NCBI GenBank assembly: GCA_035541455.1
Contig: DATKNH010000013.1
Span: 4,780 to 68,779, forward strand
Direction of reading: 5' to 3'
DNA: 64,000 nt
Origin: Syntrophorhabdales bacterium
GTDB taxonomy: Bacteria; Desulfobacterota; Syntrophorhabdia; Syntrophorhabdales; WCHB1-27
Shown: piece after piece, positions 1,249 through 44,364 of the stretch
How the letters are laid out: each line of letters begins with the position of its first letter
Numbering within the stretch: the first letter of the stretch is position 1
Program-made: the position numbers and the translations under genes
The notes under the pieces: model-generated
Told to the model about the DNA's origin: nothing
The model's input: the letters and a program-made list of their open reading frames with translations, nothing else
Database searches by the model: none

Positions 1249-2667
1249 TCAATCTATTCCATACTCAGCCCATCTGGCCTTCACTTTAGAAAGCATGCCT
1301 TCCGAGAGTTTGATCTCTGAAGGTTTGACCTTCCAATCAAACGGTATGGTGGCGTCCATGATGATGCGTGACGTGATGAACTTGTTTTCGTCGGCGCCGA
1401 TTGCCGGGTCTAGAGGAGTTGACCTTCCCCTGTTGATGATCTGTGTGCCGCGCGAAGGGCTGTAACGCGTCCCCAGCGCCCACCAGACTCTCGGGAGATC
1501 GTCTGCGTCAATATCGTCATCTACGATAATAACGCATTTAATGCCGTAGGTGCCCGTATTACTCGCGATGACCGCAGCCCCTACCTGATCCGCGTGACCG
1601 GGGTACATCTGCTGGACCGAGACCACTACAATGAAACGTCCTGAGCCTTCCGGCAATGTGTAAACCGATTTTATGCCGGGGATCTCCATCTTGGTAAGAT
1701 CGGTCCACAGGGATGCATTACGCGTGAAGGCGTAGAGCATGTGCTGATCACCTACGGGCCTGCCCACGCTTGTCTCCCACAGAATGGGATTGTTTCTGAA
1801 ATAGACGCGCTGTACGTTAAGTGCCGGCTTTGGGATAGGCTTTATCAGCTCCTCCGTGTAGTACCCGGTGTATTCACCGAAGGGCCCTTCGTTACGGAGC
1901 TGCTGCGGGTCGATCTCTCCTTCCAGAACTATCTCCGCAGCAGCGGGAATGGGCAGGCCTGTGAGCTGCCCCTTCACCACTTCAACGGGCTCACCGCGCA
2001 GAGAGCTCACAACATCGTACCCGCTCTTGGCCTTGACGGTCGCAGCGCTCGCAAAGATATGGAGGGGATCCCCGCCTATGATGGCACACGCCGGCATCTT
2101 CTTGCCGGCCTTGCCATACTTCTTCATGATCCGGTCTCCGGTTTTCCCTTTGAGTATCTGGACTCCTATAGTCTTGTTGTCGAGGATGCCCATACGATAG
2201 GTGCCCAGGTTTATGTTCCCCGTCTCCGGGTCCTGCAGAACCATGAATACTGCGGTGCCGAAGTAGCGTCCTCCGTCCAGCTCATAGAATTTCGGAGAAG
2301 GAAAGGCAAACGTGTCCACTTTATCAGCCTCGACGATGTTTTCGAAGATAGGGCCGTCTTTCACTTCCTTCGCCCGAAGCACCTCTTTGACTGCGATATT
2401 CACCCATTCCTTTGTGAGCTGCACCATGGAGAGGTCCGGGTTTTTGCCGAGTATCATCGCCAATCTCTGCGTTGTACCGAACGCACCGGTCAGGACGGGA
2501 CTCTTATATCCCTTCACGTTCTCAAATAGAAGTGCAGGGCCACTTTTCTCTTCAACGATCTTTGCGACATGAGAGATTTCCAGATCCCAATCAACCTCGG
2601 CCTTGACTCTCTTCAGTTGACCTACCTTCTCACACTGTGCCACGAAATCCCGAAGATCCATAGACAC
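1249..2667 (-). CDS. UbiD-family (prFMN-dependent) (de)carboxylase; phenylphosphate carboxylase alpha/beta-like
   Basis: 472-aa ORF. Length and N-terminus (DLRDFVAQCEKVGQLKRVKAEVDWDLEISHV...LFENVKGY) are typical of the UbiD family. Clustered with pps-like and PpcD-like genes. Confidence 0.85.
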   Translation of the reverse strand: MSMDLRDFVAQCEKVGQLKRVKAEVDWDLEISHVAKIVEEKSGPALLFENVKGYKSPVLTGAFGTTQRLAMILGKNPDLSMVQLTKEWVNIAVKEVLRAKEVKDGPIFENIVEADKVDTFAFPSPKFYELDGGRYFGTAVFMVLQDPETGNINLGTYRMGILDNKTIGVQILKGKTGDRIMKKYGKAGKKMPACAIIGGDPLHIFASAATVKAKSGYDVVSSLRGEPVEVVKGQLTGLPIPAAAEIVLEGEIDPQQLRNEGPFGEYTGYYTEELIKPIPKPALNVQRVYFRNNPILWETSVGRPVGDQHMLYAFTRNASLWTDLTKMEIPGIKSVYTLPEGSGRFIVVVSVQQMYPGHADQVGAAVIASNTGTYGIKCVIIVDDDIDADDLPRVWWALGTRYSPSRGTQIINRGRSTPLDPAIGADENKFITSRIIMDATIPFDWKVKPSEIKLSEGMLSKVKARWAEYGID

Positions 2668-2808: not shown

Positions 2809-2871
2809 ATTCTATGATATCTGCTTGACATGTCAATTTATTTGTTCTTATATTCTATAAGTAAAACTTAT
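2809..2871 (-). promoter_or_regulatory. Sigma70-type promoter plus LysR-type T-N11-A box for the UbiD/HAD operon; overlaps the divergent LysR promoter and start codon
   Basis: Minus strand reads TTGACA (2836-2831), 16-nt spacer, TAGAAT (2814-2809). The palindrome ATAAG-TAAAA-CTTAT (2857-2871) is centred about -62. The 12-bp perfect palindrome TTGACATGTCAA (2825-2836) also gives a plus-strand -35, followed after 17 nt by TTATAT, for the LysR gene. Confidence 0.6.
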
Positions 2872-3757
2872 GCTTTCCTATTCCCTTGGCTCTCTCATTG
2901 TCTTTTCCAGAGTGGTTCAACACAGAAGTTTCTCCAAGGCGGCGGATGCCCTCCTTATGACGCAGCCGGGAGTTTCGAATCACGTTGCGCAGCTGGAGGC
3001 GCAGACGGGCCTGAAGCTCCTGAAGAGGGACAGGGGAAAATTTGAGCTTACCAAGGAAGGCAGGGTGATCTATCGTTACGCGCAGAAACTGGAAAAGATG
3101 GCAGAGGATCTGGAGAATACTCTGCGCACGTTGCACAAAGAACTGCGCCCTTATCTTCGCATAGGGACTGTGCCTACGTATTCGAGGATCATGATGCCCT
3201 ACGTGCTGGGAGATTTTCAGAAGACGTATCCAAACATAAAGATAAGGCTGGACGTGGGCTCTTCCAATGAAATGAAAAAAAGCCTCGTCGCCGGCCAGAA
3301 CGATATCGTTATCGCAGCCACGCTTCACGTCTCGAAGAAGATGCAAGCCTTCCCGGTCCTGAGGGAGGAACTCGTATTGATAACGGCCAATGGTCACCCT
3401 CTGGCACGCAGGAGGACAGTCTCTCTATCCGACATTAAAGCCTACCCTTTGATTATCAGGGAGGAGGGTTCTGCAACCCGGGATGTGGTGCTTGCAGCCT
3501 TTTCACGAATTGGCATTGCTCCTTCCGTGCTGATCGAAGCAAAAAGTACTGAATTCATCAAGGAGTGGGTAGCGCAAGAAAAGGGTGTTTCCATACTTAT
3601 CAGGCGTGCCGTGAACGAAGAAGAGGATAAGTCCATCACCCGTATCTCTTTACGCGACCCCCTTTTCCTGGAGGTTTCTGTCCTCTTCCTCAAGGCGAGG
3701 CGCTATGATCCTTCAATCCAGAAATTCGTCAGCCACGTGAGAGAACTGCGGTTGTAA
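2870..3757 (+). CDS. LysR-family transcriptional regulator
   Basis: 295-aa ORF with N-terminal wHTH (VVQHRSFSKAADALLMTQPGVSNHVAQLE) and a C-terminal substrate-binding-like domain. Divergent from the UbiD operon. Confidence 0.9.
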   Translation: MLSYSLGSLIVFSRVVQHRSFSKAADALLMTQPGVSNHVAQLEAQTGLKLLKRDRGKFELTKEGRVIYRYAQKLEKMAEDLENTLRTLHKELRPYLRIGTVPTYSRIMMPYVLGDFQKTYPNIKIRLDVGSSNEMKKSLVAGQNDIVIAATLHVSKKMQAFPVLREELVLITANGHPLARRRTVSLSDIKAYPLIIREEGSATRDVVLAAFSRIGIAPSVLIEAKSTEFIKEWVAQEKGVSILIRRAVNEEEDKSITRISLRDPLFLEVSVLFLKARRYDPSIQKFVSHVRELRL

Positions 3758-3771
3758 GCGTCCGATGGAGT

Positions 3772-4191
3772 CTACGTTCTAGTTTTGCATTTCTTGATGA
3801 TTTTTTCTGGAAGCTCGCTGCAGACTTCCTGAACAATCTTTATCTCATCCTCCGTCAGCTTATCCCAGTGAATACCTGCGGTGACTACAGCATTGCGGTT
3901 GAGTCTGCGGGCGAGTTCCTCGGCAAGCGGTTTGACCAGCAGGTCTTCCTTGTGGCCCGCAAATGTGAAGACTGAGCTGGTAGCCGATGTCTCTTCAGGG
4001 TCTTTGAGGCTCTGGCGCGGCTGGGCCATTCCGACGGCGCCTACGTGAGGGTATGTGCCGCCCCATACGGCCACCAGGATGTCCGGACCCATCTCGTAGA
4101 TGATTGCGCTTACCTTGAACTTCCCCTTTCTTACGGATACTGCGCCAGATTTTACAGAAGATGAAAGACCTGTGCCGGGAGCGGCTGCCAC
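3772..4191 (-). CDS. Small conserved soluble protein; possible LpdD-like prenylated-flavin chaperone (tentative)
   Basis: 139-aa ORF (GTG start 1 nt after the upstream stop). Core VAVWGGTYPHVGAVGMAQP. Assignment rests on my recollection of the LpdD family plus UbiD context, so it is weak. Confidence 0.35.
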   Translation of the reverse strand: MAAAPGTGLSSSVKSGAVSVRKGKFKVSAIIYEMGPDILVAVWGGTYPHVGAVGMAQPRQSLKDPEETSATSSVFTFAGHKEDLLVKPLAEELARRLNRNAVVTAGIHWDKLTEDEIKIVQEVCSELPEKIIKKCKTRT

Positions 4192-4192
4192 C

Positions 4193-5425
4193 TTACAGTG
4201 TCCCCGCCCGTGAGGCTCTTATCATGCCGTCAAGAATATCGACCGCCCGCTCTGCGAAAGCAGGTTCGCTTATGTGTACGTCGAGTTCTTCCACGGGTAT
4301 GCGTGGATCAAGGAGCGATTTGAGCTTTTCTGTAAAGATGCGATCAACAGCAGGATCAAAGAGTGCCATACCTTGCTTGTCTGCATCCGACCAGCCTTTC
4401 GTGGGGATGAGCACCCGAGCGGGACCTCTACCTTTATTCAGCTTCTCTGCCACTATGCGAGCAAACTTTTCCATTTCAGGAGCTTCCATGCGCACACAGA
4501 ACCGAGTGTCATGGCCGTGAATTCTTCTTCCCTTCAATTCGTCAGGCATAGGATAATACGGGCTGAATACGGCGTTGTCAAGCCCACCCGGCGCGAAGAT
4601 AAGCGGGATGCCCATTCTGCCCGCGGTCTCAAGCCGCTCCGGTCCTATTCCTTTGCAGTACCCTCCGAACATCTCATCGGCTATCTCATGAGGATTGAAA
4701 TCGAGCGCACCTGCAATGAGGCCTTCTGCGATCATCTCTTCCATCGCCATACCGCCGCAACCATTCGCATGAAAACCGATCATATCGTATCCTCGCGCAT
4801 CCAGAAGCGGCTCTGCGAGCACTGCGCAGCCGGAATTGATCCCGTACGCAGTAACGCCGACCATAGGCCGTTCTGTTCTGATCGTGCTCTCCTTTTCCAT
4901 CATGCCGCAGACGGCATAGGCTGCCTGGGCGAGGATATGGCGCATGAAATCGTTAAACCCCAGAAGGTCTGCTACCGAGTGAAACATCAGGATATCTTTT
5001 GTCCCGACATACTCTCTGACGTCCCGTGACGCGACCGTAGACACGGCCACCTTGGGGAAACCGAAGGGCAGCGACCGCATGATTGAAGTTACTATAGCGG
5101 TTCCCGTACCGCCTCCGAGACCTATGACGCCGTCTATCTGACCTCTTTGTTGAAGGCGCGTTGCGATGATGGCCCCGCCCGTTTGAACGGTCCTGACTGC
5201 ATTTGACCTGGTCTGCTTTGTGATGCTCGCAGCCAGATCTGAGCCGGCTGCAGATGCAAGATCGTCACGCGTAAGGTCGGGAGGCGCCTGGGGTGGGCCG
5301 AGGGTTCCCACGTCCATGAGCATTGTCTTGACGCCCCGCCCCTCGGCGCACTCCTTGATGTAGGCTGCCTCCCGCCCCTTGGTGTCCAGTGTGGCAATAA
5401 CAAGAAGTCTTTTTCGTGAACTCAT
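4193..5425 (-). CDS. UPF0261 / Tm-1-like ATP-binding domain protein
   Basis: 410-aa ORF. N-terminus RLLVIATLDTKGREAAYIKECAEGRGVKTMLMDVGTLGPP matches the characteristic UPF0261 start (xxGTxDTKGxE...vDvg). Confidence 0.7.
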   Translation of the reverse strand: MSSRKRLLVIATLDTKGREAAYIKECAEGRGVKTMLMDVGTLGPPQAPPDLTRDDLASAAGSDLAASITKQTRSNAVRTVQTGGAIIATRLQQRGQIDGVIGLGGGTGTAIVTSIMRSLPFGFPKVAVSTVASRDVREYVGTKDILMFHSVADLLGFNDFMRHILAQAAYAVCGMMEKESTIRTERPMVGVTAYGINSGCAVLAEPLLDARGYDMIGFHANGCGGMAMEEMIAEGLIAGALDFNPHEIADEMFGGYCKGIGPERLETAGRMGIPLIFAPGGLDNAVFSPYYPMPDELKGRRIHGHDTRFCVRMEAPEMEKFARIVAEKLNKGRGPARVLIPTKGWSDADKQGMALFDPAVDRIFTEKLKSLLDPRIPVEELDVHISEPAFAERAVDILDGMIRASRAGTL

Positions 5426-5468
5426 GCAAGCCTGATAGAATTCTCCGCTCGGTTTACTGCCCCTCTTC

Positions 5469-6620
5469 CTAGACGCTTTGGTCTGGCGGTGGGGTTCCGG
5501 GCGGTGTAGGTAGCGTCAATGGCCATCTCAGAAAAAAGGCGTTGTGGGCAATAAAGCCCGGTGCCAAAATACAAAGGTTGAGATAGATGATGAGTATGTT
5601 TATGTCTGCAGGAAGCTTGGCAGCTGCTACACTGTCAGCCACTGGTCCCAATATCACATTGCAGATGGCTATCCAGATGGCGCTGATCACGATCACTATT
5701 ACGAAGGCCGCAACCGCCCTTGCCGCTCCCGTAAGCTTCGTGATCCCCCAGAACTGAAAATGCCAGGAGTAAAAGAGCGACCAGGTGATTATAGAAGAAG
5801 CCACGGCCCCAAAGGAGAACGAGGGGCTGACACCAAGTGCCAGGCTCCCCTGCCAGCAAATCAACGCGAGAATGTGCGAAAGGATGGTCTGGCCTATAGC
5901 TGCTCCGGGATGCCCCCATTTCCTGAACGGCCAGCCCTGCGTTACAAACACCGGGCAGAACACGAAAAACCAGGCGATTGCCCATACAATGTATCCGGTA
6001 AGCCAGTTCACATTGAGAGGACCTTTATGGTCCATCGGGGCATTGGCAACAGGTGTTCCGTCAAGATTGGTCAGGAAATTCCAGACTAGGATGGTAACGA
6101 CCATGACAACAATGAACCCTGCCACCATAGTGCCCCAGGGATGGAGTCGTCCTTTAAAGGGCCAGGTGTTCCAGTTCTTGCCGTAGAGGAGCGTACACCA
6201 GAACCCTATTGCGCCAAACCAGAGATAGAGAGGCCCTATCGGCCACTGCGGATAGACGAACCGCATGAAAAGCAAGATGACAAACGTGAATATGCCCCAC
6301 AGGATGGTCATTTTGACTCCCACTGCGAAGCGAGACATTGCAGGCGTCCAGTTACCTGCAGGAGGCGCGCACGGAAAGCAATCCCCTATAAGTACCAGGT
6401 GCCCTTCCGCGATGAGCATGATAAGAATGGCAGGCAGAAGTTTCAGTACAAGCAATGCCGGCGGCACGGCGTACACAAAAAGAATTGTGCCAAGGATGGT
6501 GAGACCGATGAATTGGATGAGGCCACCCAATCTCCCTTCGGGACCAACACCGATCTTCGATTTCGTATCGTCTCCAAGTACCTCCCCCGCGCCAATTGTT
6601 GCCTCTCTTTCATTCCCCAT
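5469..6620 (-). CDS. Polytopic Trp-rich integral membrane protein, unknown function
   Basis: About 10 hydrophobic segments. Start chosen at MGNEREAT (6620), preceded by GGGGAGAGGAG. The 30-aa basic extension in the ORF track has no RBS. Confidence 0.6.
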   Translation of the reverse strand: MGNEREATIGAGEVLGDDTKSKIGVGPEGRLGGLIQFIGLTILGTILFVYAVPPALLVLKLLPAILIMLIAEGHLVLIGDCFPCAPPAGNWTPAMSRFAVGVKMTILWGIFTFVILLFMRFVYPQWPIGPLYLWFGAIGFWCTLLYGKNWNTWPFKGRLHPWGTMVAGFIVVMVVTILVWNFLTNLDGTPVANAPMDHKGPLNVNWLTGYIVWAIAWFFVFCPVFVTQGWPFRKWGHPGAAIGQTILSHILALICWQGSLALGVSPSFSFGAVASSIITWSLFYSWHFQFWGITKLTGAARAVAAFVIVIVISAIWIAICNVILGPVADSVAAAKLPADINILIIYLNLCILAPGFIAHNAFFLRWPLTLPTPPGTPPPDQSV

Positions 6621-6777: not shown

Positions 6778-7842
6778 CTATTTTATCCTCACCCCCGTCA
6801 GTAACTGGCCTAAGATGCGGTCCATGGCATCTTTCTTCTGTTCAGTTTTTGGCGCAACCTCCTTCTTGCTCCAGACGGATTCAGGTCTCACCTGGAGAAT
6901 GATGATATTTTCGGGGAACTGAAAATCGGCATCGATCCCGAACTCGATGTCGTAAGGTTTTCCATAATAGTTCTCGATCAATTTTCCGACGCGGGCAAGC
7001 TCTTTCAATTCAAAGTGTGTGAGACAGGGAACACACCTCATCTCCTCAGGCACTTCTGTCTGCAGGATGTCGCTCCCATTCTCCCGGTAAACGCATTGGG
7101 TCTCTTTGCTGCCTATGGTTGTCTTTATGGTGTCGAGGGTGATCTTGTCGACAAGGTATGTGTCTGGCGTTACCATGCCGCTGACTACAGCCTCTCCGAG
7201 ACCGCAACTCGCATCAATCGAAATTTTTGAAAGATCGCCGTTCACGGGGTTAATGGTAAAGATTATCCCCGATACTCTGGAGTTGACCATCTTAGGGATA
7301 CCGACGCCTATATTGAAGAGGAACGGCATTCCCTTGTTCATGCGGTACATGATAGCTTCGACATTGTAGGCACTGGCCCAGCATCTCTTGACGTAGTCGA
7401 TAAGGTCCTTTTCTCCGCGTATATTGAGATATGTCTCCATCTGGCCCGGCATGGATACGGCGCCACTCGATCTGACTGCCACAGGACAGACGCCCGTCTT
7501 GCTCCTTTCGCAAAGCTTCTTGTAATTGGCGAGTATATCTTCTTCTATGTCGGATGGTACCTGCGCGTTTTCAATTAAGCGAATGCCTGTTTCGCTTGCC
7601 TGCTTTGCGGTTTCAAATGTCACCTGACCAAGCTCAGTTAGCAGTTTCTCCAGCTCTGATTTTATTCCCGTATCAACAATAAATTTCTCGTTGGCATAAA
7701 TGGTGATGCAAAATCCCGGAGCGACCGGTATGCCCGCTTTGATCATTTCTCCGAGATTGGCATTTTTCTTACCGACGAGTGGAAAGTCGTTACCGTCCAT
7801 TTCGTCGTACCAGATGGTGAGCCTTTTTTCTTTTTCTGTCAT
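6778..7842 (-). CDS. PEP-utilising enzyme, N-terminal ATP-binding (PPDK_N) module; phenylphosphate synthase beta (PpsB)-like
   Basis: FPLVGKKNANLGEMIKAGIPVAPGF resembles the PEP synthase/PPDK nucleotide-binding N-terminus. About 354 aa, with no His-swivel domain. Start at MTEKEK has a GGGGG RBS; the longer start would lie inside a repeat element. Confidence 0.8.
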   Translation of the reverse strand: MTEKEKRLTIWYDEMDGNDFPLVGKKNANLGEMIKAGIPVAPGFCITIYANEKFIVDTGIKSELEKLLTELGQVTFETAKQASETGIRLIENAQVPSDIEEDILANYKKLCERSKTGVCPVAVRSSGAVSMPGQMETYLNIRGEKDLIDYVKRCWASAYNVEAIMYRMNKGMPFLFNIGVGIPKMVNSRVSGIIFTINPVNGDLSKISIDASCGLGEAVVSGMVTPDTYLVDKITLDTIKTTIGSKETQCVYRENGSDILQTEVPEEMRCVPCLTHFELKELARVGKLIENYYGKPYDIEFGIDADFQFPENIIILQVRPESVWSKKEVAPKTEQKKDAMDRILGQLLTGVRIK

Positions 7843-7861
7843 CTTGTTACCCCCGGACTCT

Positions 7862-7953
7862 GAGGCTAAGGCCAAGGTCGAGGTTATGAAATAATTGCAT
7901 GATGCGAAGCGCTGATCTTTTCGTTTTTCTCAACCTCAACCTTAGCCTCAACC
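7862..7953. repeat. Intercistronic hairpin repeat, copy E1 (AAGGNN / NNCCTT word family)
   Basis: Left arm GAGGCTAAGGCCAAGGTCGAGGTT (7862-7885) pairs with right arm AACCTCAACCTTAGCCTCAACC (7932-7953). Shares TTTCGTTTTT (7919-7928) and ACCTCAACCT (7933-7942) with copy E2. Confidence 0.75.
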
Positions 7954-7962
7954 TGTTCTAAC

Positions 7963-9804
7963 CTATTTTGCTCTTTCCAGTATCTGCACTAACCCGGTGT
8001 CGCCGTTGATCCGGAGCAGATCACCCGTTTTTATCAGCTGTGTGCCCTTGCCTGTCCCGACAACGGTCGGCAATCCGTATTCCCTGCAGACAATGGCAGC
8101 GTGGCACATAGGGCCACCCACGTCGGTCACGGCCCCTGCAATCTTGACGAACGCAGGTGCCCAACTGGGCGACGTGGTGGTCGCCACCAGTATCTCTCCC
8201 TCTTGAAGATCAGCAAGCTGGTCCACGGTCTTCAGAACCCGGGCCTTTCCTTCGACCACACCGGATGAGCCTGCAGAGCCCTGGATCTCATTCTGCGCTC
8301 CTCCTTCTGCGGGGCCGGCGAGCCACTTCTGGAGGGCATCGTTGGTGACTCCCCAGAGGACAATGGTGAAGGGCTCTGTCACAACGTCTGGTGGCACGCC
8401 AAGCGCCGGCGGCGGGGTCCACTGTTTGAACTTTTCGTAAACACCCTTTCTCCAGGCAATCTCTTTCGGCCAGTAGGAAGGTCCTCTCGCCCTCACCCCC
8501 GTTGCCCAGGAGGTGACATGATCCCAGAGCGCCTGTTTGATCTCATCACGCCTCAGGAACCAGATGTCCTCGTCGGCATTTTCGATGAATCCCGCATTCT
8601 GAAGGATCTGGCCCACCTGGCGGACCTTCCCCCAGAAAAGGCTGTGAAACCAGTGCTCCACGTAGAAATTATGATCCTCAGCGTAAGGCAACACCAACCG
8701 AGCTATAGCCAGGCCTTGATCGAATGCCTCTCTGTCAGCATCGGTCTTTATCAGCTTCCTGTACTCACCCGCGATCCGATCACGCTCCTTGAGAATCTGG
8801 GCCGTCGGTCTGCCGATCTCCTTGCCTGCTTTAAGGGTTTTAATGTTAGTCCGGATATTATCGAAGGGAACGTTAAGATTATCATTCCAGCTGATATGTG
8901 TGTGATACCAGCCTGTGCCTGTAGACATGTAGAACCACGGGTAGCGCGCTTTTTCCAGTTCCTTGAGCCACTCCTTGCCCACAGGATGCTTCTCCAGTTC
9001 CTTCATGAGCTCATCGGCTTTCAATGGTTTGGCGAATATGTCTTCGATACCGACTTCGATAGCGAGTTTCGCCAGCCTTATCAGTTCAGCATCGGGCTTG
9101 AAAAGGATAGGATCAAAACCGGCCGACATCTTGACCAGCGTTGATATCGGTACATCTGGAAAAATCTGGTTAGCCGTGCCGAAGAAAGTCACCTGCGCAG
9201 CGTAACACAGGTTCAGGAATTCAAAATGATACTGCCAGCACAGCAGGCCAAGGTCGATCAGCTCATCGTATCTTCTGAGGAGCTCGTAGCCGCTCCCCTT
9301 TCCAAGCCCGTCCTTGATGACGCTGATATCCTCCATCACGGGAAGGTCGGTAAAGTTCATTGATTCGAGTTTATCGATCGTGGCGGTCATCTTCTTCTTC
9401 CAGTTTTCATACAACCTGTCCCAGTTCTGGAAATAATACCCTGCGCGCTCCATAAAATGCGGCACCCGCTTTCCCACTTCCTCAGGGTCGGGAACGCCGA
9501 CAGGGCTGATGTACACATACCCGTTAACGATCCTGTGGTCGATGCCGAGGGCGGGCGGGATGATGTAATGGCGGGTGTTATATTGCGAAAGAGCCAGAGA
9601 CCACGCTTCATCCCAGATGAGATCGAAAGGATAATGAGGCTCCGGGTAATGGAGGCCATCATAGAACCATATCTGGCTGCTCTCAAATTTGGCACGTTCA
9701 GGATCTTCTTTGGAGAAGATATACTGATAAGGGTACAGCTTCTCCCAGCCTTCCGTTCCCGGAATCATTGGTACATCGTGTGGGTCCGTAAATGTTTTCG
9801 CCAT
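7963..9804 (-). CDS. PEP-utilising enzyme with C-terminal phospho-histidine swivel domain; phenylphosphate synthase alpha (PpsA)-like
   Basis: 613-aa ORF. C-terminus GEILVATTTSPSWAPAFVKIAGAVTDVGGPMCHAAIVCREYGLPTVVGTG is the PEP-utiliser mobile domain with the catalytic His. Large non-PPDK N-terminal part, as in split phenol-phosphorylating enzymes. Confidence 0.8.
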   Translation of the reverse strand: MAKTFTDPHDVPMIPGTEGWEKLYPYQYIFSKEDPERAKFESSQIWFYDGLHYPEPHYPFDLIWDEAWSLALSQYNTRHYIIPPALGIDHRIVNGYVYISPVGVPDPEEVGKRVPHFMERAGYYFQNWDRLYENWKKKMTATIDKLESMNFTDLPVMEDISVIKDGLGKGSGYELLRRYDELIDLGLLCWQYHFEFLNLCYAAQVTFFGTANQIFPDVPISTLVKMSAGFDPILFKPDAELIRLAKLAIEVGIEDIFAKPLKADELMKELEKHPVGKEWLKELEKARYPWFYMSTGTGWYHTHISWNDNLNVPFDNIRTNIKTLKAGKEIGRPTAQILKERDRIAGEYRKLIKTDADREAFDQGLAIARLVLPYAEDHNFYVEHWFHSLFWGKVRQVGQILQNAGFIENADEDIWFLRRDEIKQALWDHVTSWATGVRARGPSYWPKEIAWRKGVYEKFKQWTPPPALGVPPDVVTEPFTIVLWGVTNDALQKWLAGPAEGGAQNEIQGSAGSSGVVEGKARVLKTVDQLADLQEGEILVATTTSPSWAPAFVKIAGAVTDVGGPMCHAAIVCREYGLPTVVGTGKGTQLIKTGDLLRINGDTGLVQILERAK

Positions 9805-9838: not shown

Positions 9839-10486
9839 CTAGAGTCTGAACCATCGCGGTTCATCGAACCGCTCGGTACAACGCAGCACACGGCTCGCGT
9901 AGTTCAATACATACTTACCCTTCAGCTTTAGGTTGAGTTTTCTAAACTCCTCGTTATTCAGGAGGCGCCCGATGTCCACCGGATCTTTGAAAGTGAACTC
10001 GCTGACGATTTCGCTGACTCCACCAAGAACAACGTTCCATCCGCCTGTCACTTCCATGTAATCTATTTTTTGGATAGTGGGCAGGTATTCCTTGACGATG
10101 AAGTCCGCGTACTCTTTTTTTACTCCCGGCTTCAGGTCGTAGTACTGATTAAATTTCCACACACCTTTCTGAATAGTGTATGTTTCTCGCTTTACCCTGC
10201 CGGTCGGCTCGAGGACGGTGGTCCTGTAGCTGTAGACAAGCGATTTAACATTTAGTGAAAGCTGTTTGAATCGTTCACTCGTAATAACGCGGGAAAGCAG
10301 TTCGAGGTCGGTTGCCAGGTTGACGCCTATCACCCTTGGGCCAAAACCGACCTCAACGTAATAGCCTCCGACCGGCGTGAGCCCTGTAGCTGCTAACTCC
10401 TTCAGGTAGGTACCGGCGATAAAATTCGCGTATTCGTCCTCTTTCCCCGGAATGATGTCATAGGCTGTAGTGAACAGAACAGACAT
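9839..10486 (-). CDS. Internally duplicated protein of unknown function (two alpha+beta-barrel/NIPSNAP-like halves, tentative), first gene of the pps-like operon
   Basis: 215 aa. Half 1 is YDIIPGKEDEYANFIAGTYLKE...ERFKQLSLNVKSLVYSYRTTVLEPTGR. Half 2 is YYDLKPGVKKEYADFIVKEYLPT...EEFRKLNLKLKGKYVLNYASRVLRCTER. AAGGAGG RBS. Confidence 0.5.
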   Translation of the reverse strand: MSVLFTTAYDIIPGKEDEYANFIAGTYLKELAATGLTPVGGYYVEVGFGPRVIGVNLATDLELLSRVITSERFKQLSLNVKSLVYSYRTTVLEPTGRVKRETYTIQKGVWKFNQYYDLKPGVKKEYADFIVKEYLPTIQKIDYMEVTGGWNVVLGGVSEIVSEFTFKDPVDIGRLLNNEEFRKLNLKLKGKYVLNYASRVLRCTERFDEPRWFRL

Positions 10487-10604: not shown

Positions 10605-10667
10605 ATTGTATAATGAGCAGTGAATATGTCAACTAATTTATTTTTATGCTATATAAGAAAAACTTAT
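10605..10667 (-). promoter_or_regulatory. Sigma70-type promoter plus LysR-type T-N11-A box for the pps-like operon
   Basis: Minus strand reads TTGACA (10632-10627), 16-nt spacer, TACAAT (10610-10605). The palindrome ATAAG-AAAAA-CTTAT (10653-10667) lies exactly 20 nt from the -35, the same geometry as at 2809-2871. Confidence 0.6.
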
Positions 10668-38397: not shown

Positions 38398-39792
38398 TTA
38401 GACCAGGTCCTCCGGATTTGGAATAAACTTCTTCAGATCTATCCGTTTCATTACATCCTCAGGTATAGCTGCCACAGGGGGCAGATCCTTGCGGAACGGC
38501 TTTGCGGTCGCGTCTATGCCCACTTTTGTCACGACAGCCTCTTGCGCTGACGACAGATCAAGGTCCGTACCGAGCACGCCCGGCAGGATCATTACGTCCC
38601 TGTCTGCCTGCACCCTTGTGGCGAGCGCCCAGGTCATTTGGGCACCATTGTCCAGGTCGATGTCGGTATCAACGCAGACAACGTACTTGAGGTACAGGTC
38701 ATTGGCAAATGCCGCAAGGATAGCCTGTTTTGGCTGCCCCGCATGTTTCTTATCGATTTGAATAAACCCGTACCACCAACCTGCTGCCGCGATGAATTTG
38801 AATTTCTTTACGTCGGGTACGGCCTCTTTAATTTTGCGGTTCATAAAGGAATGTTGCGGGATACGGCCCATCAGCATACCCTTGCTCGGCCAGGCTCCCA
38901 TGTCGTGCACGATCGGGTTCTTCCTATGGGTTATCGCTGTGATCTTTACAGGGTGGCGCATGGCCACCTGGTGGTACTTGGTGAAATCACCCCACGGGCC
39001 TTCCTGCTCCCGGACACCCGGGGGGATGACGCCTTCTATGATGATCTCGGCACGTGCGGGCACAAGTACGTCGCTTGTCTCGCATCTCACCACCTCAAGG
39101 GGCTCTCCCATCAGGCTTCCCGCAATGTCAAATTCTGAAGGTGGATGGCTCACACGGCTCTGAAAAGCGGTAGCCCACGCAGGATGAAGCCCTATGGCAA
39201 ATGCGATAGGCATCGGCTCGTTGCGTTCCATGTAATCATTATAGATGTGCCAGAAATGACGACCGGGCGTGATGTGAGTTACACCGAGGTGCGGCTTTTT
39301 TACCATGAAGCGGTAGTGAGAGCAATGGGGAGCATTTATCTTTCTATCCATCACTATGCCCACCGCCCTTGTGAGATAAGGCGCTTCGCCCTTGTGATGA
39401 GTGATAAAAGGGAAACGCGTCATATCCGCCTTTTTGCCCGTGAGTACAACATCCCTGCAAGGAGCATCTTCTTTCTTGATCTCCTTTGCGGGATACTTAT
39501 TCAGCCGGATTGCCTCCTCTTCCTTCTCGCCGTAAAAGTCTTCAACTCTTTGCGGAGGGATACCAAGGGCGAGGCTGTACTTGGTGGCGCTGGTCTCGGT
39601 ATTACATACGACAGGCGTGCTGTACCCTTTCACCTTCTCGAAGAGAACCATGGGGTATTTGCCCATAAGGTCCAGTTTCTTTACTATTGCGGTGATCTCA
39701 TACTTGGGATCAACCTCCCGCGTGACCCTCACGAACTCCTGCGGCAGCTCTCTTTCGCAATCCGCCATGAACGTCCTTAAATCTCTCGCCAT
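38398..39792 (-). CDS. UbiD-family (prFMN-dependent) decarboxylase, second distant paralog
   Basis: About 464 aa from MARDLRTFMADCE (AGGAGG RBS). UbiD-like N-terminus ...YPMVLFEKVKGY and family-typical length. Confidence 0.85.
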   Translation of the reverse strand: MARDLRTFMADCERELPQEFVRVTREVDPKYEITAIVKKLDLMGKYPMVLFEKVKGYSTPVVCNTETSATKYSLALGIPPQRVEDFYGEKEEEAIRLNKYPAKEIKKEDAPCRDVVLTGKKADMTRFPFITHHKGEAPYLTRAVGIVMDRKINAPHCSHYRFMVKKPHLGVTHITPGRHFWHIYNDYMERNEPMPIAFAIGLHPAWATAFQSRVSHPPSEFDIAGSLMGEPLEVVRCETSDVLVPARAEIIIEGVIPPGVREQEGPWGDFTKYHQVAMRHPVKITAITHRKNPIVHDMGAWPSKGMLMGRIPQHSFMNRKIKEAVPDVKKFKFIAAAGWWYGFIQIDKKHAGQPKQAILAAFANDLYLKYVVCVDTDIDLDNGAQMTWALATRVQADRDVMILPGVLGTDLDLSSAQEAVVTKVGIDATAKPFRKDLPPVAAIPEDVMKRIDLKKFIPNPEDLV

Positions 39793-39833
39793 TAATAAGC
39801 CCTCCTTAAGGAACACATTTCACGCTAGAGTAA

Positions 39834-40811
39834 CTACTTCTTCCAAGCGCCGATTTCTTTCAGATATTTTTCCGCTCCCGGGTGAAAAGGAACAGGTGTG
39901 GCCTTCGTCATATTCTCAATTGTAAAATCACCTGTTGTCGAAGCGTGGATCGCATAGTAGTCCTGCCGGTGTTCCCAGAGATTTTTCAGGAATCGATATA
40001 CAAGATCTTCACTCACGTCAGCATGCGTGAAGATGCTGGTGGCAAATCCGTAGACCGGCGTATCCTGGTCCATTCCTTTGTATGATTTTGCTTTGATGAT
40101 CCTCTTGTAATAGTAAGGGTGTTCCGGAAGTATCTTGTTAAATGCCTGTTCATCCACCGGTACCACGCGTGCGGGCGTAAGCTGTGAAAGCTCCATGTAG
40201 GAGGGCATCGGATAAGCTCCTCCAAGAAAGCCACCGTCCAGGCTCCCGTTCTGTATGCCCTCGACTACTTCTTTGAAGACATAGTAGTACGGTTTGAAAT
40301 CGTTTTTTGTCACACCATGCGCTTCAAAAAAAAGAAGAGCGCTTGTGGAGACAGTGCTGCCCGGCCCTCCGATGCCTATGCGCTTGCCTTTGGCATCTGC
40401 AAAGGATTTGATGGGGCCCCTGGCAGGTACAGCAAAGTACTGGTCCGATCCGTTGATAAAACATATCGCCCGCAATGTTGAGAAGGGCTTACCCGCGTAT
40501 TCGCCAAGCCCCTTATACGCACGATAGCCGTCAGGCGTGCCGAAAAGAGCGAATGCCGGTTTTTTGCCTGCCTCCCTCTGCATCATGCGGCGGACCATCT
40601 CCATGGTTCCTGTGGCTGCCTCATGAACGAAGTTGACATCGGTCATGTATTTATTGGTAACTGCCGCCACCCCGGCGCCGAGCACGTAGACTGTTCCCCC
40701 TGAGGGCGGCGTATATAAAGGAGCAAGTTCCGCAGCTCGGGATGTGCTCGTTGCCAGTACCGTGACTGCGAATATTAAGCTCACTAAGGTGATCAGGATG
40801 ATATCTTTCAT
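39834..40811 (-). CDS. TAXI-family TRAP solute receptor
   Basis: Start at MKDIILI (GGGAGGA RBS) with a signal peptide. GGTVYVLGAGVAAVTNKY...RIGIGGPGSTVSTSALLFFEAHGV is the TAXI/NMT1-like pattern. Confidence 0.75.
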   Translation of the reverse strand: MKDIILITLVSLIFAVTVLATSTSRAAELAPLYTPPSGGTVYVLGAGVAAVTNKYMTDVNFVHEAATGTMEMVRRMMQREAGKKPAFALFGTPDGYRAYKGLGEYAGKPFSTLRAICFINGSDQYFAVPARGPIKSFADAKGKRIGIGGPGSTVSTSALLFFEAHGVTKNDFKPYYYVFKEVVEGIQNGSLDGGFLGGAYPMPSYMELSQLTPARVVPVDEQAFNKILPEHPYYYKRIIKAKSYKGMDQDTPVYGFATSIFTHADVSEDLVYRFLKNLWEHRQDYYAIHASTTGDFTIENMTKATPVPFHPGAEKYLKEIGAWKK

Positions 40812-40905
40812 TTTGATCCTCCCACGCTCTTGCTGGTCGCTTGTCTCCTGCAAGATGCTCAAGGCTGTTCACCGCTTACCCCTGACTGCTCACTTGCTGC
40901 TGCTC

Positions 40906-42201
40906 TTAGGCCACTCCCGGTATGATATTGCCCCCTGAGGGGAAGATCGCAACATCAGCCTGCGGCATCTTGTTCGCAGCCATATCCACTGCCTCGGGGA
41001 GCGTGCGAGCGTGAGTGAACTTCATCATCCGTACGGTCTCTGTCGGCAGCCCTTCGGTGACGTGTATCACGTCAAACTTCTCTGCGAGTTCCTTGAAGAA
41101 GACCACCTGCATAATATACGAGATGCCAAACGAGGTTAGCTGGTCGGGAATCTTCCCGGCGATCAACCTGCGGTGAAAATCAGTGGCGGTTTCAGAACTC
41201 GCCATCTCCTGGACGAGAGGCAGTATCGGACCGGCCTCCTTTTGAGGGGCGACCCAGATGATGATGCCTCCCGAACGGGTGCAGTAGCCGGCCATGGTCA
41301 GGGCCTTGGTAGCCTGCACGGCGATTTCCAGGGGATACGCCGACGTGATCGTCACATCAGCGACCTTGGCAAGAGGAACGAAGTAAAGGGACGCCGCGAA
41401 CTTGGCAGCCTCTCTGTGCTCAGCCACCGTTTCTCCTGCGAACGCGCGAATGATTTCTTTCCTGTCGTTGATGACGAGATCGAGCTTGAACGCGAGCCGT
41501 GCCAGTCGTCCTGCGTCGGTGATCTCTTCGTAAAAAGGATTGCCGTCCATCACGTTTACTTTGGCATATCGATGACGAATCCAGGCGAAATGATGATCTG
41601 CTACTGCCCGATAGGAACAGACGCCGGGCATTATAATCTTGTTTCCGCCACCGAAGCCTGCAGTGGGATGCGGCATACACTCACCAACGCCCACGATCAG
41701 GTCAGCAAAGGCCACGTGAGGGTTGATCTCGATCAGAGCGCCCCTGTGGGTTCGACCGATGACAACGTTTTGTGTGGAGTAGGGATCGTGGGAGACGAGC
41801 CGTTCACCCAACCGTTTTGCGACTTCCTCGCCCGCCTTTTTCTTCAGCTGTTCATATGATAGGACCGGGTGTGTTCCCAGGGCACATACCGCAGTCATGC
41901 GCGAATCAGGAATCCCCGCGCGGTTAAGGCGGTTCATCAATTCAGGCAGCGCCAGGTGTGCGGGTGTCGGCCGCTGAAGATCGTCGAACAGCAGCACGAC
42001 ATCCATCCCGGGCTTAGCAAGCTCCTCCAGCCTTGGCCCTCCTACGGGATTGTCGAGCGCCCTCTTGATTTCGGCTACAGGATCGGCTACGCCTGGAACT
42101 GTCGGCTTGTCCTGATCAGAGAGTACTTTCCACCCCGGGGGTAAAGAGAAGCACATCTGCTTTCCCTCGCAGATGACGTAACGTTCACGTGCCTCGGCCA
42201 T
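40906..42201 (-). CDS. LarA-family (nickel-pincer nucleotide-dependent) 2-hydroxyacid racemase/epimerase homolog
   Basis: 431 aa. ALGTHP plus CMPHPTAGFGGGNKIIMPG correspond to the LarA catalytic His and the H..GF.GG.K cofactor-tethering Lys motif (DUF2088 domain). Confidence 0.75.
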   Translation of the reverse strand: MAEARERYVICEGKQMCFSLPPGWKVLSDQDKPTVPGVADPVAEIKRALDNPVGGPRLEELAKPGMDVVLLFDDLQRPTPAHLALPELMNRLNRAGIPDSRMTAVCALGTHPVLSYEQLKKKAGEEVAKRLGERLVSHDPYSTQNVVIGRTHRGALIEINPHVAFADLIVGVGECMPHPTAGFGGGNKIIMPGVCSYRAVADHHFAWIRHRYAKVNVMDGNPFYEEITDAGRLARLAFKLDLVINDRKEIIRAFAGETVAEHREAAKFAASLYFVPLAKVADVTITSAYPLEIAVQATKALTMAGYCTRSGGIIIWVAPQKEAGPILPLVQEMASSETATDFHRRLIAGKIPDQLTSFGISYIMQVVFFKELAEKFDVIHVTEGLPTETVRMMKFTHARTLPEAVDMAANKMPQADVAIFPSGGNIIPGVA

Positions 42202-42204
42202 CTA

Positions 42205-43209
42205 TCACCTCGTCTTGGTAAGTAATTTCTTCAACTCGGGAGTTGTCTTGGGAGCTTTTTCCATCAACTCTGCCCATCCCGCATCATACGCTGTTTTCAG
42301 GAATTTTTCGCTTTCAGCAGGGGAGAGTTGGATGACCTCGATGCCTTCCTTCTGCAGTATAGGGCGTTCCTTCTTCTTCAGATCGTCGAAGAGTGCGACT
42401 GCTTTTTTCTCGCCTTCCACTGCAGCCTCATTCAGGATATCCTGAAGCTTCTTCGGCAAACCATTGAATGTCTTCTGGTTGATGAGGACGGGATTGGGCA
42501 CGTTGTAGAACCCCGGCTCGACGACGTATTTCGTTACCTTGTCCCAGCCCCAGTCGCGGATCCCGACAGAGGGCCAGCAATAACCGTCCACAACATGGCG
42601 TTCCAGTGCCGCGTATACTTCTGTCGGTGGTATCACCACCGGGTTCCCGCCCAGGGTCTTTATTGCCTGCAGCTGGTTTGCAGATACCCTGATGTTCAAC
42701 CCTTTTAAATCGGCGCTCTTGATCGGCTTAACCAGATAAAGGTGAAATTTGAGATCGAGTCCGAGCCTCGCCTGGTAACGAAGCCCTAGCCTCTGTTCAT
42801 GGAGCGTGTTAAAGTACGCCCAGGCTCCGCTCGCCCTTTCCTCCATGGGTGTCATCGTGGAAAGCTTCATTGCATCCGCTTCGGGGAGCACCGAGAGATA
42901 GTAGGCGTTTGTAGTGAAGACCATATCCACCATGCCGCGCTGCGCAGCTGCCACCTGCTCGTTTGTCTTCACAGCTTCCGGGCCGCCGATGTACTGAATT
43001 TTCAACTCACCCGGCGCCTTCTTCGCTACAAGCTGTTCGACCAGGTCGGTGAAAATGAAGAAAGCCTGGTTATCTGTGGCTGTTTTTGGCCAGGCGGTCA
43101 CTGCCTTGAGGGTGACAGATTCAGCAGCCCGAGCAACAGGGGTGTGGACGGTAAATACAGAAGCCATGAAAATAACTGTGCAGAAAAGAATGAATGATCC
43201 CTTTTTCAT
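42205..43209 (-). CDS. dctP: TRAP substrate-binding protein, DctP family (paralog group member 1)
   Basis: 334 aa with a signal peptide. Close paralog of 43290-44294 and 57166-58158 (shared blocks GGPEAVK, LGGNPVV, VVDGY). Confidence 0.85.
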   Translation of the reverse strand: MKKGSFILFCTVIFMASVFTVHTPVARAAESVTLKAVTAWPKTATDNQAFFIFTDLVEQLVAKKAPGELKIQYIGGPEAVKTNEQVAAAQRGMVDMVFTTNAYYLSVLPEADAMKLSTMTPMEERASGAWAYFNTLHEQRLGLRYQARLGLDLKFHLYLVKPIKSADLKGLNIRVSANQLQAIKTLGGNPVVIPPTEVYAALERHVVDGYCWPSVGIRDWGWDKVTKYVVEPGFYNVPNPVLINQKTFNGLPKKLQDILNEAAVEGEKKAVALFDDLKKKERPILQKEGIEVIQLSPAESEKFLKTAYDAGWAELMEKAPKTTPELKKLLTKTR

Positions 43210-43289
43210 CGGTGGCCTCCCTTCAAGTTTCTGTGCAGCCCGTATTTGTCTGAGCCGGACCGCCTTTACTCTACCGTGATATACCTGAC

Positions 43290-44294
43290 TTACTTTCCGG
43301 TCTTCTTTGTCAGTAACTTTTGCAGTTCAGGGCCTGTTTTCGGGTTGTTCTTTATCACGTCTTTCCAGCCCTCGTCGTAGGCTATTTTGAGGAATTTCTC
43401 CTTCTCGGCCGGAGGAAGCTCGATCACCTGGATACCGGCCTTTTTCAGAAGAGGGATCTCTTTCTTGCCTTCCTCCTCATAATAGGCGACAGTCTTTCTT
43501 TCCGACTCCATGGCGGCCTCTGTGAGCACATCCTTGAATTTCTTAGGCAGCGCATTCCATGCTTTCAGATTCATGATGAGAGGATGCGGTCCTGAATAAA
43601 ATCCCGTATCGACGATGTACTTGGTCTGCTTCTCCCATCCCCACTCCCGGATCGTCACGAGGACAAAGCAATATCCATCTACCACTTTGCGCTCGAGCGC
43701 CTGGTACACGTCGCTCGGTGGAATGACCACTGGATTACCGCCAAGGCCCTTGATGACCTGAAGATACATGGGAGAGACTCGAATGTTGAACCCTTTAAGG
43801 TCGGCCGTCTTTATCGGTCGTGTCAGGTAAAGGTAAAACGGCGCATCTATACCGAGTCTACCCAGAAGGTAAAGGCCTTTCTTTTCGTGCAAGTCATTGA
43901 AGTACGCCCAGGCTCCGTTTGCCCTCTCCTCCCATGGTTTGAAGTCCGAGAGCTTCATAGCATCGACCTCGGGAACTTCAGAGACATAGTACGCGTTGGT
44001 CGTATGGACGATATCAACCATGCCGGTCTGAGCAGCGTGCGCCTGGTCCTGGATCTTGACCGCTTCGGGACCACCGACGAGGTTCAGTTTCAGCTCGCCG
44101 GGATATTTCTTCGCCACCTGTTGCTCGACGCTGTCCATGAAATAAAAAAGTGATTTGTTGTCGGTGGTGTTTTTTGGCCAGGCAGTGACGACCTTCAGCG
44201 TGATTGTCTGTGCGTTGGCGATACCGTGTATCGTACAAGCAAAAAAGAATAAGGCAACGACTGCAGCAAAAAGAAAGCCTGCTTTCTGCTTCAT
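43290..44294 (-). CDS. dctP: TRAP substrate-binding protein, DctP family (paralog group member 2)
   Basis: 334 aa. Collinear similarity with the two other members along the full length. Confidence 0.85.
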   Translation of the reverse strand: MKQKAGFLFAAVVALFFFACTIHGIANAQTITLKVVTAWPKNTTDNKSLFYFMDSVEQQVAKKYPGELKLNLVGGPEAVKIQDQAHAAQTGMVDIVHTTNAYYVSEVPEVDAMKLSDFKPWEERANGAWAYFNDLHEKKGLYLLGRLGIDAPFYLYLTRPIKTADLKGFNIRVSPMYLQVIKGLGGNPVVIPPSDVYQALERKVVDGYCFVLVTIREWGWEKQTKYIVDTGFYSGPHPLIMNLKAWNALPKKFKDVLTEAAMESERKTVAYYEEEGKKEIPLLKKAGIQVIELPPAEKEKFLKIAYDEGWKDVIKNNPKTGPELQKLLTKKTGK

Positions 44295-44364
44295 AATTCC
44301 TCCTCATTTATTGTTTTCTGCCTCACTAGACCCGTGTCCCTTGACCCCTGATCCTATTTTTCAG

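Follow-up and report, generated by a model that had tools for sequence, protein, structure and literature searches.

Gene clusters for the anaerobic activation of phenol have been described in Thauera aromatica, Geobacter metallireducens and Desulfatiglans anilini. Here, we have analysed a window of 64,000 nucleotides from a Syntrophorhabdales metagenome-assembled genome (MAG; assembly GCA_035541455.1, contig DATKNH010000013.1, positions 4,780 to 68,779), the first part of which carries a cluster whose overall pathway logic is identical to that of these phenylphosphate clusters. In common with them it has PpsA, PpsB, PpcB (at equivalog level), a PpcA-like protein, PpcC, KdsC-like phosphatases and UbiX. 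It differs from them in that the cluster contains no CBS-type PpsC and in that a gene for a 215-aa orphan protein (unk215) precedes ppsA. Its additional genes, for a membrane protein with ten predicted transmembrane helices (10-TM), a UPF0261 protein, an LpdD-like protein and a riboflavin kinase, are undescribed in the published accounts of those clusters that we consulted. The first three of these are the subject of this study; they form the 3' end of the unk215-ppsA-ppsB operon and adjoin a LysR gene and the phenylphosphate carboxylase genes. Judged from its gene content, the setting is a complete anaerobic phenol activation cluster, with phenylphosphate synthase and carboxylase, that has its own flavin-prenylation genes. 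We tentatively read the trio as helpers that were recruited separately and would not constitute one obligate machine: a chaperone for the cofactor, an aryl (phenol) kinase resembling MarK and, possibly, a facilitator for the substrate.

The described counterpart of the 139-aa protein (3772-4191, minus strand, GTG start) is LpdD of L. plantarum, whose H35 is needed for the binding of reduced prenylated flavin (prFMNH2) (PMC10865409). The initial annotation had tentatively likened the two, and profile and structure comparisons make the likeness strong by sequence, metal ligands and predicted fold. PF21758 (LpdD/PAC_bac) matches residues 22-135 with 124.2 bits against a cut-off of 27, the motif WGGTYPHVGAVGMAQP occupies residues 43-58, and a sequence search of the Protein Data Bank (PDB) returned the L. 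plantarum LpdD structures 8pzh and 8po5 at E=3e-9. The metal-site residues H35, H61 and D63 of LpdD are matched in the alignment by H49, H80 and E82, beside which stands D83; H49, H80 and E82 are invariant in 30 homologues, and the change from D to E is conservative. When the AlphaFold2 (AF2) model (pLDDT 91) was compared with the PDB by Foldseek, the six best matches were all LpdD chains (E=2e-8 to 4e-7, TM-score 0.71-0.85), and the next were the proteasome assembly chaperones PAC3 and PAC4, a group that LpdD is known to resemble. Sequence and predicted fold, the latter the six-stranded sheet with helices of LpdD, together establish that the 139-aa protein belongs to the LpdD family.

Besides the Pfam domain, the predicted fold (TM-score 0.72-0.85 with 8PO5/8PZH) and the metal-site residues, the two proteins have in common that they are small and stand-alone, and many relatives of the 139-aa gene lie directly beside UbiX, as lpdD lies beside lpdB (PMC10865409). 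UbiX is directly downstream of the LpdD-like gene in 30 of the 73 related loci that could be evaluated. The differences are that the 139-aa protein is only ~22% identical to LpdD, that its gene is the last one of a phenylphosphate synthase operon, directly after UPF0261, in a strict anaerobe, and that its presumed client is a multi-subunit phenylphosphate carboxylase instead of the gallate decarboxylase of L. plantarum. By analogy with L. plantarum LpdD, the one characterised member of the family, the 139-aa protein probably binds prFMNH2 and acts as a chaperone serving the UbiD-type subunits of phenylphosphate carboxylase. It would take the reduced prenylated flavin from the cluster's UbiX and hand it to these subunits. 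We also observed that in Syntrophobacter sp. SbD1 (L084:12276-16053) the LpdD-like gene lies between ppsB and ppsA in a 17.8-kb locus within which UbiD and UbiX are not visible, an odd spot for a chaperone of prenylated flavin.

For the UPF0261 protein, the described system is MarK (Saro_1862) of Novosphingobium aromaticivorans, the first member of the UPF0261 family for which an activity was described, in 2025 (PMC12624787). MarK phosphorylates the phenolic hydroxyl of acetovanillone and of other hydroxyaromatics, converting ATP to ADP; G195 and H219 hydrogen-bond the phenolic oxygen, H304 stacks, H348 is the ketone ligand, and K16 of the ATP site is essential, mutation of this residue switching MarK on (PMC12624787). 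The window's 410-aa protein (4193-5425, minus strand; type A in our grouping below) was called UPF0261 in the initial annotation, and this identity holds for both Pfam domains (PF06792, E=1e-57; PF23189, E=9e-62) and for NF002674 (419 bits). In the PDB it matches Tm-1 (3WRY, E=4e-59) and MarK (9MPY, E=9e-59 over residues 2-401), so that it shares the two-domain architecture of MarK in an alignment from end to end. The MarK residues D14, T15, K16, G195, H219, H302 and H304 are kept. The ATP site reads LDTKG (residues 13-17), and G195, H219 and H305 stand in the places of the phenolic-oxygen ligands G195 and H219 and of the stacking H304. Among type-A proteins, G195, H219 and H304 are kept in 23/23 and D14-T15-K16 in 21/23, the other two having gaps. 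As the MarK-type residues kept in the 410-aa protein are also present in Tm-1, they mark the UPF0261 family and not the substrate. The pocket itself has changed relative to MarK (T196 to I, F283 to N, I285 to V, H348 to A). From these comparisons, the 410-aa protein is a probable ADP-forming small-molecule kinase, a two-domain ATP-binding protein like MarK and Tm-1, and it looks like an active kinase of the MarK family with a different pocket, for which a smaller or different substrate than acetovanillone is possible. Strict orthology with MarK, and with it an acetovanillone kinase, is ruled out by the identity of ~31% and the changed pocket residues.

The genomic settings of the two kinases are alike in that both genes sit with enzymes that consume an aryl phosphate. 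The MarK gene lies with an acvCDEF-type biotin carboxylase and serves the biotin-dependent carboxylation of phospho-acetovanillone in an aerobe, whereas the 410-aa gene lies beside pps/ppc genes, where carboxylation of phenylphosphate is of the UbiD type and the organism is an anaerobe. Moreover, the operon that holds the 410-aa gene also encodes an LpdD homologue and a dikinase whose presumed function is the same. With Tm-1, and with the pairs of UPF0261 and a TIM-barrel protein (PF09370), the operon has the UPF0261 ATP-binding module in common, and differs from them in that the neighbours are pps/ppc genes and LpdD. The TIM-barrel/PEP-hydrolase partner, already noted as absent in the initial annotation, was found on none of the ten flanking annotated genes.

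We tentatively favour a role as phenol kinase because the sole known activity of a UPF0261 protein is the first-step chemistry of the phenol pathway at half the ATP cost, and because the MarK authors noted that dikinase-type and MarK-type kinases frequently occur together, ~25% of the genomes with an aromatic kinase holding both (PMC12624787). The most likely substrate would be a phenolic hydroxyl, that of phenol or of a related hydroxyaromatic. Judged from leaving-group acidity, phenol should be easier than acetovanillone to phosphorylate with conversion of ATP to ADP. The UPF0261 protein would provide a second route to the aryl phosphate, one ATP equivalent cheaper than that of the AMP-forming PpsAB dikinase, and the phosphorylated substrate would, in addition, be trapped in the cell. 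Substrate trapping had been offered in the initial annotation as an alternative to its cofactor-loading idea, and we consider it at least as likely, since MarK has been shown to phosphorylate phenolic hydroxyls (PMC12624787). The 1-nt spacing would couple the expression of kinase and chaperone in the lineage of the window and does not require that the two take part in a shared reaction.

To place these genes, two samples of loci were compared. The LpdD-based sample holds 80 loci found with a subfamily alignment in 185,579 species genomes, and the UPF0261-based sample holds 80 metagenome loci, 38 of them with type A. Fisher tests were made on those 43 loci of the LpdD-based sample that reach 15 kb or more; these loci are related by descent, so the p-values overstate independence. 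Pps was found in 28 of the 29 loci with UPF0261 and in 2 of the 14 without it (Fisher p=7e-8, a significance inflated by kinship). Sorted by Pps, the same loci have UPF0261 in 28/30 with Pps versus 1/13 without. The corresponding figures for UbiX are 26/29 and 8/14 (Fisher p=0.04, likewise inflated). UPF0261 tracks the Pps/PpcB context far better than UbiX. The commonest gene order is ppsA-ppsB-(membrane)-UPF0261, and the position is conserved across MAGs of Syntrophorhabdales, Syntrophales and Desulfobacterales despite rearrangements. Cultured Syntrophorhabdus aromaticivorans UI has the same UPF0261-LpdD pair (L036). The exact trio was found only in the closest relatives (L003-L006), which does not bear out the conservation next to UbiD genes elsewhere on which the initial annotation had made its idea depend; taken individually, the genes recur next to UbiD/UbiX genes in many anaerobes. 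An obligate three-gene module was ruled out, each gene being found without the other two. Separate recruitment is favoured because each gene occurs alone and UPF0261 follows Pps, not UbiX.

It might be argued that the adjacency is incidental, i.e. that UPF0261 has a housekeeping or otherwise unrelated function and drifted beside phenol genes in some lineages, and that the membrane protein has nothing to do with phenol. In keeping with this, several type-A genes (L105, L109-L111) are more than 7 kb from any phenol gene and have neighbours of the MltB-like, HAD, HDAC-like and ferredoxin-like kinds, and the membrane gene stands alone in Desulfosarcina variabilis. However, at least one phenol-cluster gene accompanies type A in 22 of the 38 type-A loci of the UPF0261-based sample, many of which are short contigs, and in 5 of the 7 with at least 3 kb on both sides. 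Together with the strong association with Pps in the LpdD-selected set and the position conserved among the three orders, this makes an incidental adjacency improbable.

The UPF0261 proteins fall into four groups, each found beside LpdD or UbiX. In the LpdD-based sample, UPF0261 occurs anywhere in the locus in 44/80 and directly upstream of LpdD, adjacent or overlapping, in 30 of the 70 loci that could be evaluated. Type A, the type of the window, has 23 members there, 20 of them directly upstream of LpdD and often overlapping it. Of the 15 type-B members, which have lost H219 and H304, nine are upstream of LpdD. All eight members of type C directly follow UbiX; they are the most MarK-like (40% identity). 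The four type-D members, lying between UbiD and UbiX, have lost T15, K16 and H304. Up to three UPF0261 paralogues occur within one cluster. We also observed that in type-C proteins of Desulfobacterales-type phenol clusters (L029:11165-12544, L047:6329-7591, L058:10937-12175) the pocket residues are kept except H348.

These arrangements would be expected if UPF0261 and the LpdD-like protein formed a module that, at the expense of ATP, produced or matured prenylated flavin or placed it in the phenylphosphate carboxylase of strict anaerobes. UPF0261 might supply a phosphorylated precursor such as dimethylallyl monophosphate (DMAP) or flavin mononucleotide (FMN), or it might drive transfer or oxygen-independent maturation. 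In the window the two genes are 1 nt apart, and riboflavin kinase (CTP-type) follows UbiX on the same contig, in the slot that type-C UPF0261 takes in Desulfobacterales-type clusters. The oxygen-free oxidation and loading of prFMNH2 are, moreover, acknowledged as an open question (PMC10865409, PMC13040415). On the other hand, LpdD of L. plantarum needs neither ATP nor a partner to work (PMC10865409), and the sole known UPF0261 activity acts on phenolic hydroxyls (PMC12624787). In the UPF0261-based sample, 27 type-A loci could be evaluated, and no more than 3 of them have LpdD directly downstream, two further cases being cut by contig ends; in 11 loci type A is convergent with membrane-ppsB-ppsA and LpdD is not adjacent. 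LpdD-UbiX pairs exist without UPF0261: among the loci of 15 kb or more, 14 are free of UPF0261 and 8 of these have the pair, as do Chloroflexi loci such as L063, L064 and L075; therefore UPF0261 is not a general requirement for the supply of prenylated flavin. Among the best 150 of 1653 LpdD-family representatives, no UPF0261-LpdD fusion was found. UPF0261 tracking Pps/PpcB, and not UbiX, also speaks against such a module. We regard it as possible, if doubtful. A stronger form, in which UPF0261 and LpdD are the missing oxygen-free, ATP-dependent activation route for phenylphosphate-type UbiD carboxylases and the paralogues are catalytic and non-catalytic subunits, is in our judgement unlikely. 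The initial annotation had proposed a module for maturation or loading of prenylated flavin; the likeness of the 139-aa protein to the LpdD chaperone and the cluster's own UbiX and riboflavin kinase agree with it, whereas the limited conservation of the trio and the tracking of Pps/PpcB by UPF0261 do not.

The other neighbours of LpdD bear on the same question. UbiX requires DMAP and reduced FMN (FMNH2), and Nudix enzymes are able to make DMAP from dimethylallyl diphosphate (DMAPP), or FMN from flavin adenine dinucleotide (FAD). A NudF-like Nudix hydrolase lies beside LpdD or LpdD-UbiX in the UPF0261-free loci L064, L068 and L075, and stand-alone Nudix genes of one family directly adjoin LpdD-UbiX in Chloroflexi MAGs. 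P0355 (313 aa), the longest protein among the best 150 of 1653 LpdD-family representatives, is a natural LpdD-Nudix fusion. The same LpdD-associated Nudix family is also found upstream of type-A UPF0261 in 6 metagenome loci. Where UPF0261 is lacking, LpdD or LpdD-UbiX frequently adjoins some other enzyme that handles nucleotides or phosphate; besides Nudix, the neighbours include a hydrolase of the HAD type, a protein with an HD domain, a PaaK-like ligase and the ispA-dxs isoprenoid operon. The placement of Nudix next to LpdD suggests that the chaperone is linked to a step in which a precursor is supplied, DMAP from DMAPP or FMN from FAD. As these neighbours fit a precursor-supply theme, they keep the cofactor hypothesis alive, the more so as Nudix, HAD and HD proteins take the place next to LpdD-UbiX in loci that have no UPF0261. 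As an observation apart, in the lineage whose type A is convergent with membrane-ppsB-ppsA (L090:2993-3748, L090:3730-4362 on the minus strand, L113:4768-5325 and equivalents), type A is preceded in 12 loci by a histone-deacetylase-family gene, in 9 loci by an orphan 210-aa gene that runs on the opposite strand, and in 6 loci by a Nudix gene.

A kinase of the MarK family could also be imagined to work in reverse. The phosphoryl group of phenylphosphate would then be passed to ADP during phenolate carboxylation, recovering ATP, and UPF0261 would replace PpcD where it is lacking, or supplement it. The ADP-forming MarK reaction might in principle be reversible. Desulfobacterales-type clusters hold PpsAB, one PpcB-like UbiD, UPF0261 paralogues, LpdD and UbiX and have no PpcA, PpcC or PpcD, and work on Desulfatiglans anilini and Geobacter notes missing subunits, an undetectable carboxylase activity and an unexplained energy cost (PMC6114531). 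However, the cluster in the window has two PpcD-like HAD phosphatases along with PpcA and PpcC, so a replacement is not needed, and type B, the typical paralogue of the clusters without PpcA, PpcC and PpcD, lacks H219 and H304. To our knowledge there is no biochemical precedent for such a reaction. We consider the reverse reaction very improbable.

The membrane protein (5469-6620, minus strand, 383 aa) had been described in the initial annotation as Trp-rich and of no recognisable family, and both statements stand. It has 5.2% Trp and 7.8% Pro, and no match was found in Pfam, NCBIfam or PADLOC or to PDB sequences. Its AF2 model is a 10-helix bundle (pLDDT 86.9, pTM 0.86) for which Foldseek returned no match in the PDB (best E=0.12, TM-score ~0.2), so that the protein matches known membrane transporter families neither in sequence nor in fold. 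Its 118 homologues (46-90% identity) come mostly from anaerobic deltaproteobacterial lineages, are unnamed or 'hypothetical', and are all without Pfam domains. Many W, P and G positions are invariant in the family, as is the C-terminal motif LRWPLTLPxPPGTPPPD. The reading frame is open to 6710. Counted from its first ATG the protein would have 413 aa, whereas the ATG at 6620, which is the start in the public gene call as well, gives 383 aa; the conserved core begins near residue 22. An internal duplication was excluded, the N- and C-terminal halves aligning with an hhalign probability of 0.9%.

The membrane gene follows ppsB in L001-L006, L011, L085/86 and L098-L113. In L085/86, a widespread peat and wetland lineage, neither UPF0261 nor LpdD lies behind it, and in Syntrophobacter sp. 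SbD1 it is near the ppsB-lpdD-ppsA group. In 9 further loci this slot (ppsB-membrane-UPF0261 or membrane-LpdD) is taken by a second family of membrane proteins, 363 aa long, with examples at L007:7528-8619, L015:4837-5931 and L040:5107-6198; the two families are remotely related (hhalign probability 88%, E=3e-6, 162 columns). The 383-aa protein is a member of an orphan family tied to ppsB and the pps genes. Judged by this position, it belongs to the pps part of the cluster and would most likely help the aromatic substrate across or out of the membrane. A reading of the trio as a defence system was dropped, PADLOC having no match for any of the three proteins.

Several points weigh against the phenol kinase and the separate recruitment that we favour. 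A phenol kinase looks redundant where PpsAB is already present. Type A is only ~31% identical to MarK and differs in pocket residues (T196 to I/V, F283 to N), and the MarK paper lists phenol among the compounds tested, the outcome not being stated in the parts covered (PMC12624787). The presence of up to three UPF0261 paralogues per cluster, with three other groups placed repeatedly and independently beside LpdD/UbiX, fits a cofactor role better. Further points are the immediate placement of 20/23 type-A genes before LpdD among LpdD-selected loci and the occurrence of a single Nudix family both with LpdD, as a fusion or a neighbour, and upstream of type A. Type-A genes far from phenol genes, as in L105 and L111 (none within 7 kb), and the phylogenetic relatedness of the loci, by which the Fisher tests overstate independence, have to be counted as well.

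The three genes belong to a minus-strand array of six in the order unk215, ppsA-like, ppsB-like, membrane, UPF0261 and LpdD-like. Coordinates, lengths and the 1-nt spacing of the trio agree with the open reading frames as first annotated. The gene for unk215 (9839-10486, minus strand, 215 aa) is the first of the operon and precedes ppsA in 19 related loci; the protein has no match in Pfam, NCBIfam or the PDB. As no CBS-type PpsC is present, unk215 may take over the function of phenylphosphate synthase's third, stimulatory subunit. The PpsA-like protein, the phosphohistidine and substrate subunit (7963-9804, minus strand), matches PF00391, and NF006152 at 887 bits (cut-off 723). The PpsB-like protein, with the ATP-binding domain of phenylphosphate synthase (6778-7875, minus strand), matches PF01326 (PPDK_N) at 301 bits; the public gene call starts at 7842, not 7875. 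The gaps are 157 nt between ppsB and the membrane gene, 43 nt between the membrane gene and UPF0261 and 1 nt between UPF0261 and the LpdD-like gene. At the last junction (TAA-G-GTG), a single base separates the TAA stop of UPF0261 (4195-4193) from the GTG at 4191, and a GGGGA lies ~10 nt upstream of this GTG. The initial annotation saw no obvious promoter of the trio's own, and this holds as far as a consensus scan shows. The best sigma-70-like match, and the sole strong one upstream of the operon, is at 10605-10632 on the minus strand (TTGACA-16-TACAAT, 11/12 positions, a consensus match only); the remaining matches are inside open reading frames, e.g. 4553-4581 within UPF0261.

The array ends 14 nt short of a convergent LysR-type regulator gene (2870-3757, plus strand; PF00126 and PF03466), which is divergent from ppcB and is found in the same position in 15/73 related loci. 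The PpcB-type UbiD, phenylphosphate carboxylase's beta subunit (1249-2667, minus strand), matches TIGR02724 at 678 bits (cut-off 469). Where Thauera has a single PpcD, two tandem KdsC-like, PpcD-like HAD phosphatases (185 and 176 aa) occupy 7-1108 on the minus strand; both are far below the TIGR02726 equivalog cut-off (115 and 110 versus 282 bits). Beyond the window start, the same contig carries a PpcA-like UbiD, PpcC (PF09662, Phenyl_P_gamma), a third UbiD, UbiX and the CTP-type riboflavin kinase.

LpdD homologues and UPF0261 kinases are known kinds of protein, and the parts found here add members to these families. In the literature that we could search, there is no description of the way in which they recur in anaerobic phenol clusters, nor are the UPF0261 groups around LpdD-UbiX, the LpdD-Nudix fusion or the ppsB-linked membrane family described there. 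Our literature search found UPF0261 tied neither to phenol nor to UbiD, and Tm-1 tied neither to UbiX nor to UbiD, it yielded nothing of use on a DMAP kinase in connection with UbiX, and the published accounts of phenol and aniline degradation by Desulfatiglans anilini leave the hypothetical genes of the clusters unnamed.

Nothing is overturned by these observations, and three points in anaerobic aromatic metabolism become directly testable. Prenylated flavin as the cofactor of phenylphosphate carboxylase was never settled, and an LpdD chaperone, UbiX and riboflavin kinase in the cluster argue for it. The energy yields available to syntrophs and sulfate reducers are very small, and published work has called it unexplained how they meet the ATP cost of activating phenol; if the pps operon does encode a MarK-like, ADP-forming kinase for phenol, one ATP equivalent would be saved. 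For oxygen-free activation of UbiD, UPF0261 paralogues and Nudix (including the fusion), HAD and HD proteins beside LpdD-UbiX are concrete candidates. In addition, the large and almost uncharacterised UPF0261 family gains a second biological context, and an orphan 10-helix membrane family tied to ppsB is now defined. As S. aromaticivorans UI has the same UPF0261-LpdD pair, experiments are feasible.

Elsewhere in the window, another gene of the UbiD family (38398-39816, minus strand) is part of a separate cluster, whose genes at 40906-45687 include those for a TRAP transporter DctM subunit and a LarA-like protein (Lar_N/LarA_C). From this gene content, the cluster at 38398-45687 may be another aromatic-acid (de)carboxylase system of the same genome.

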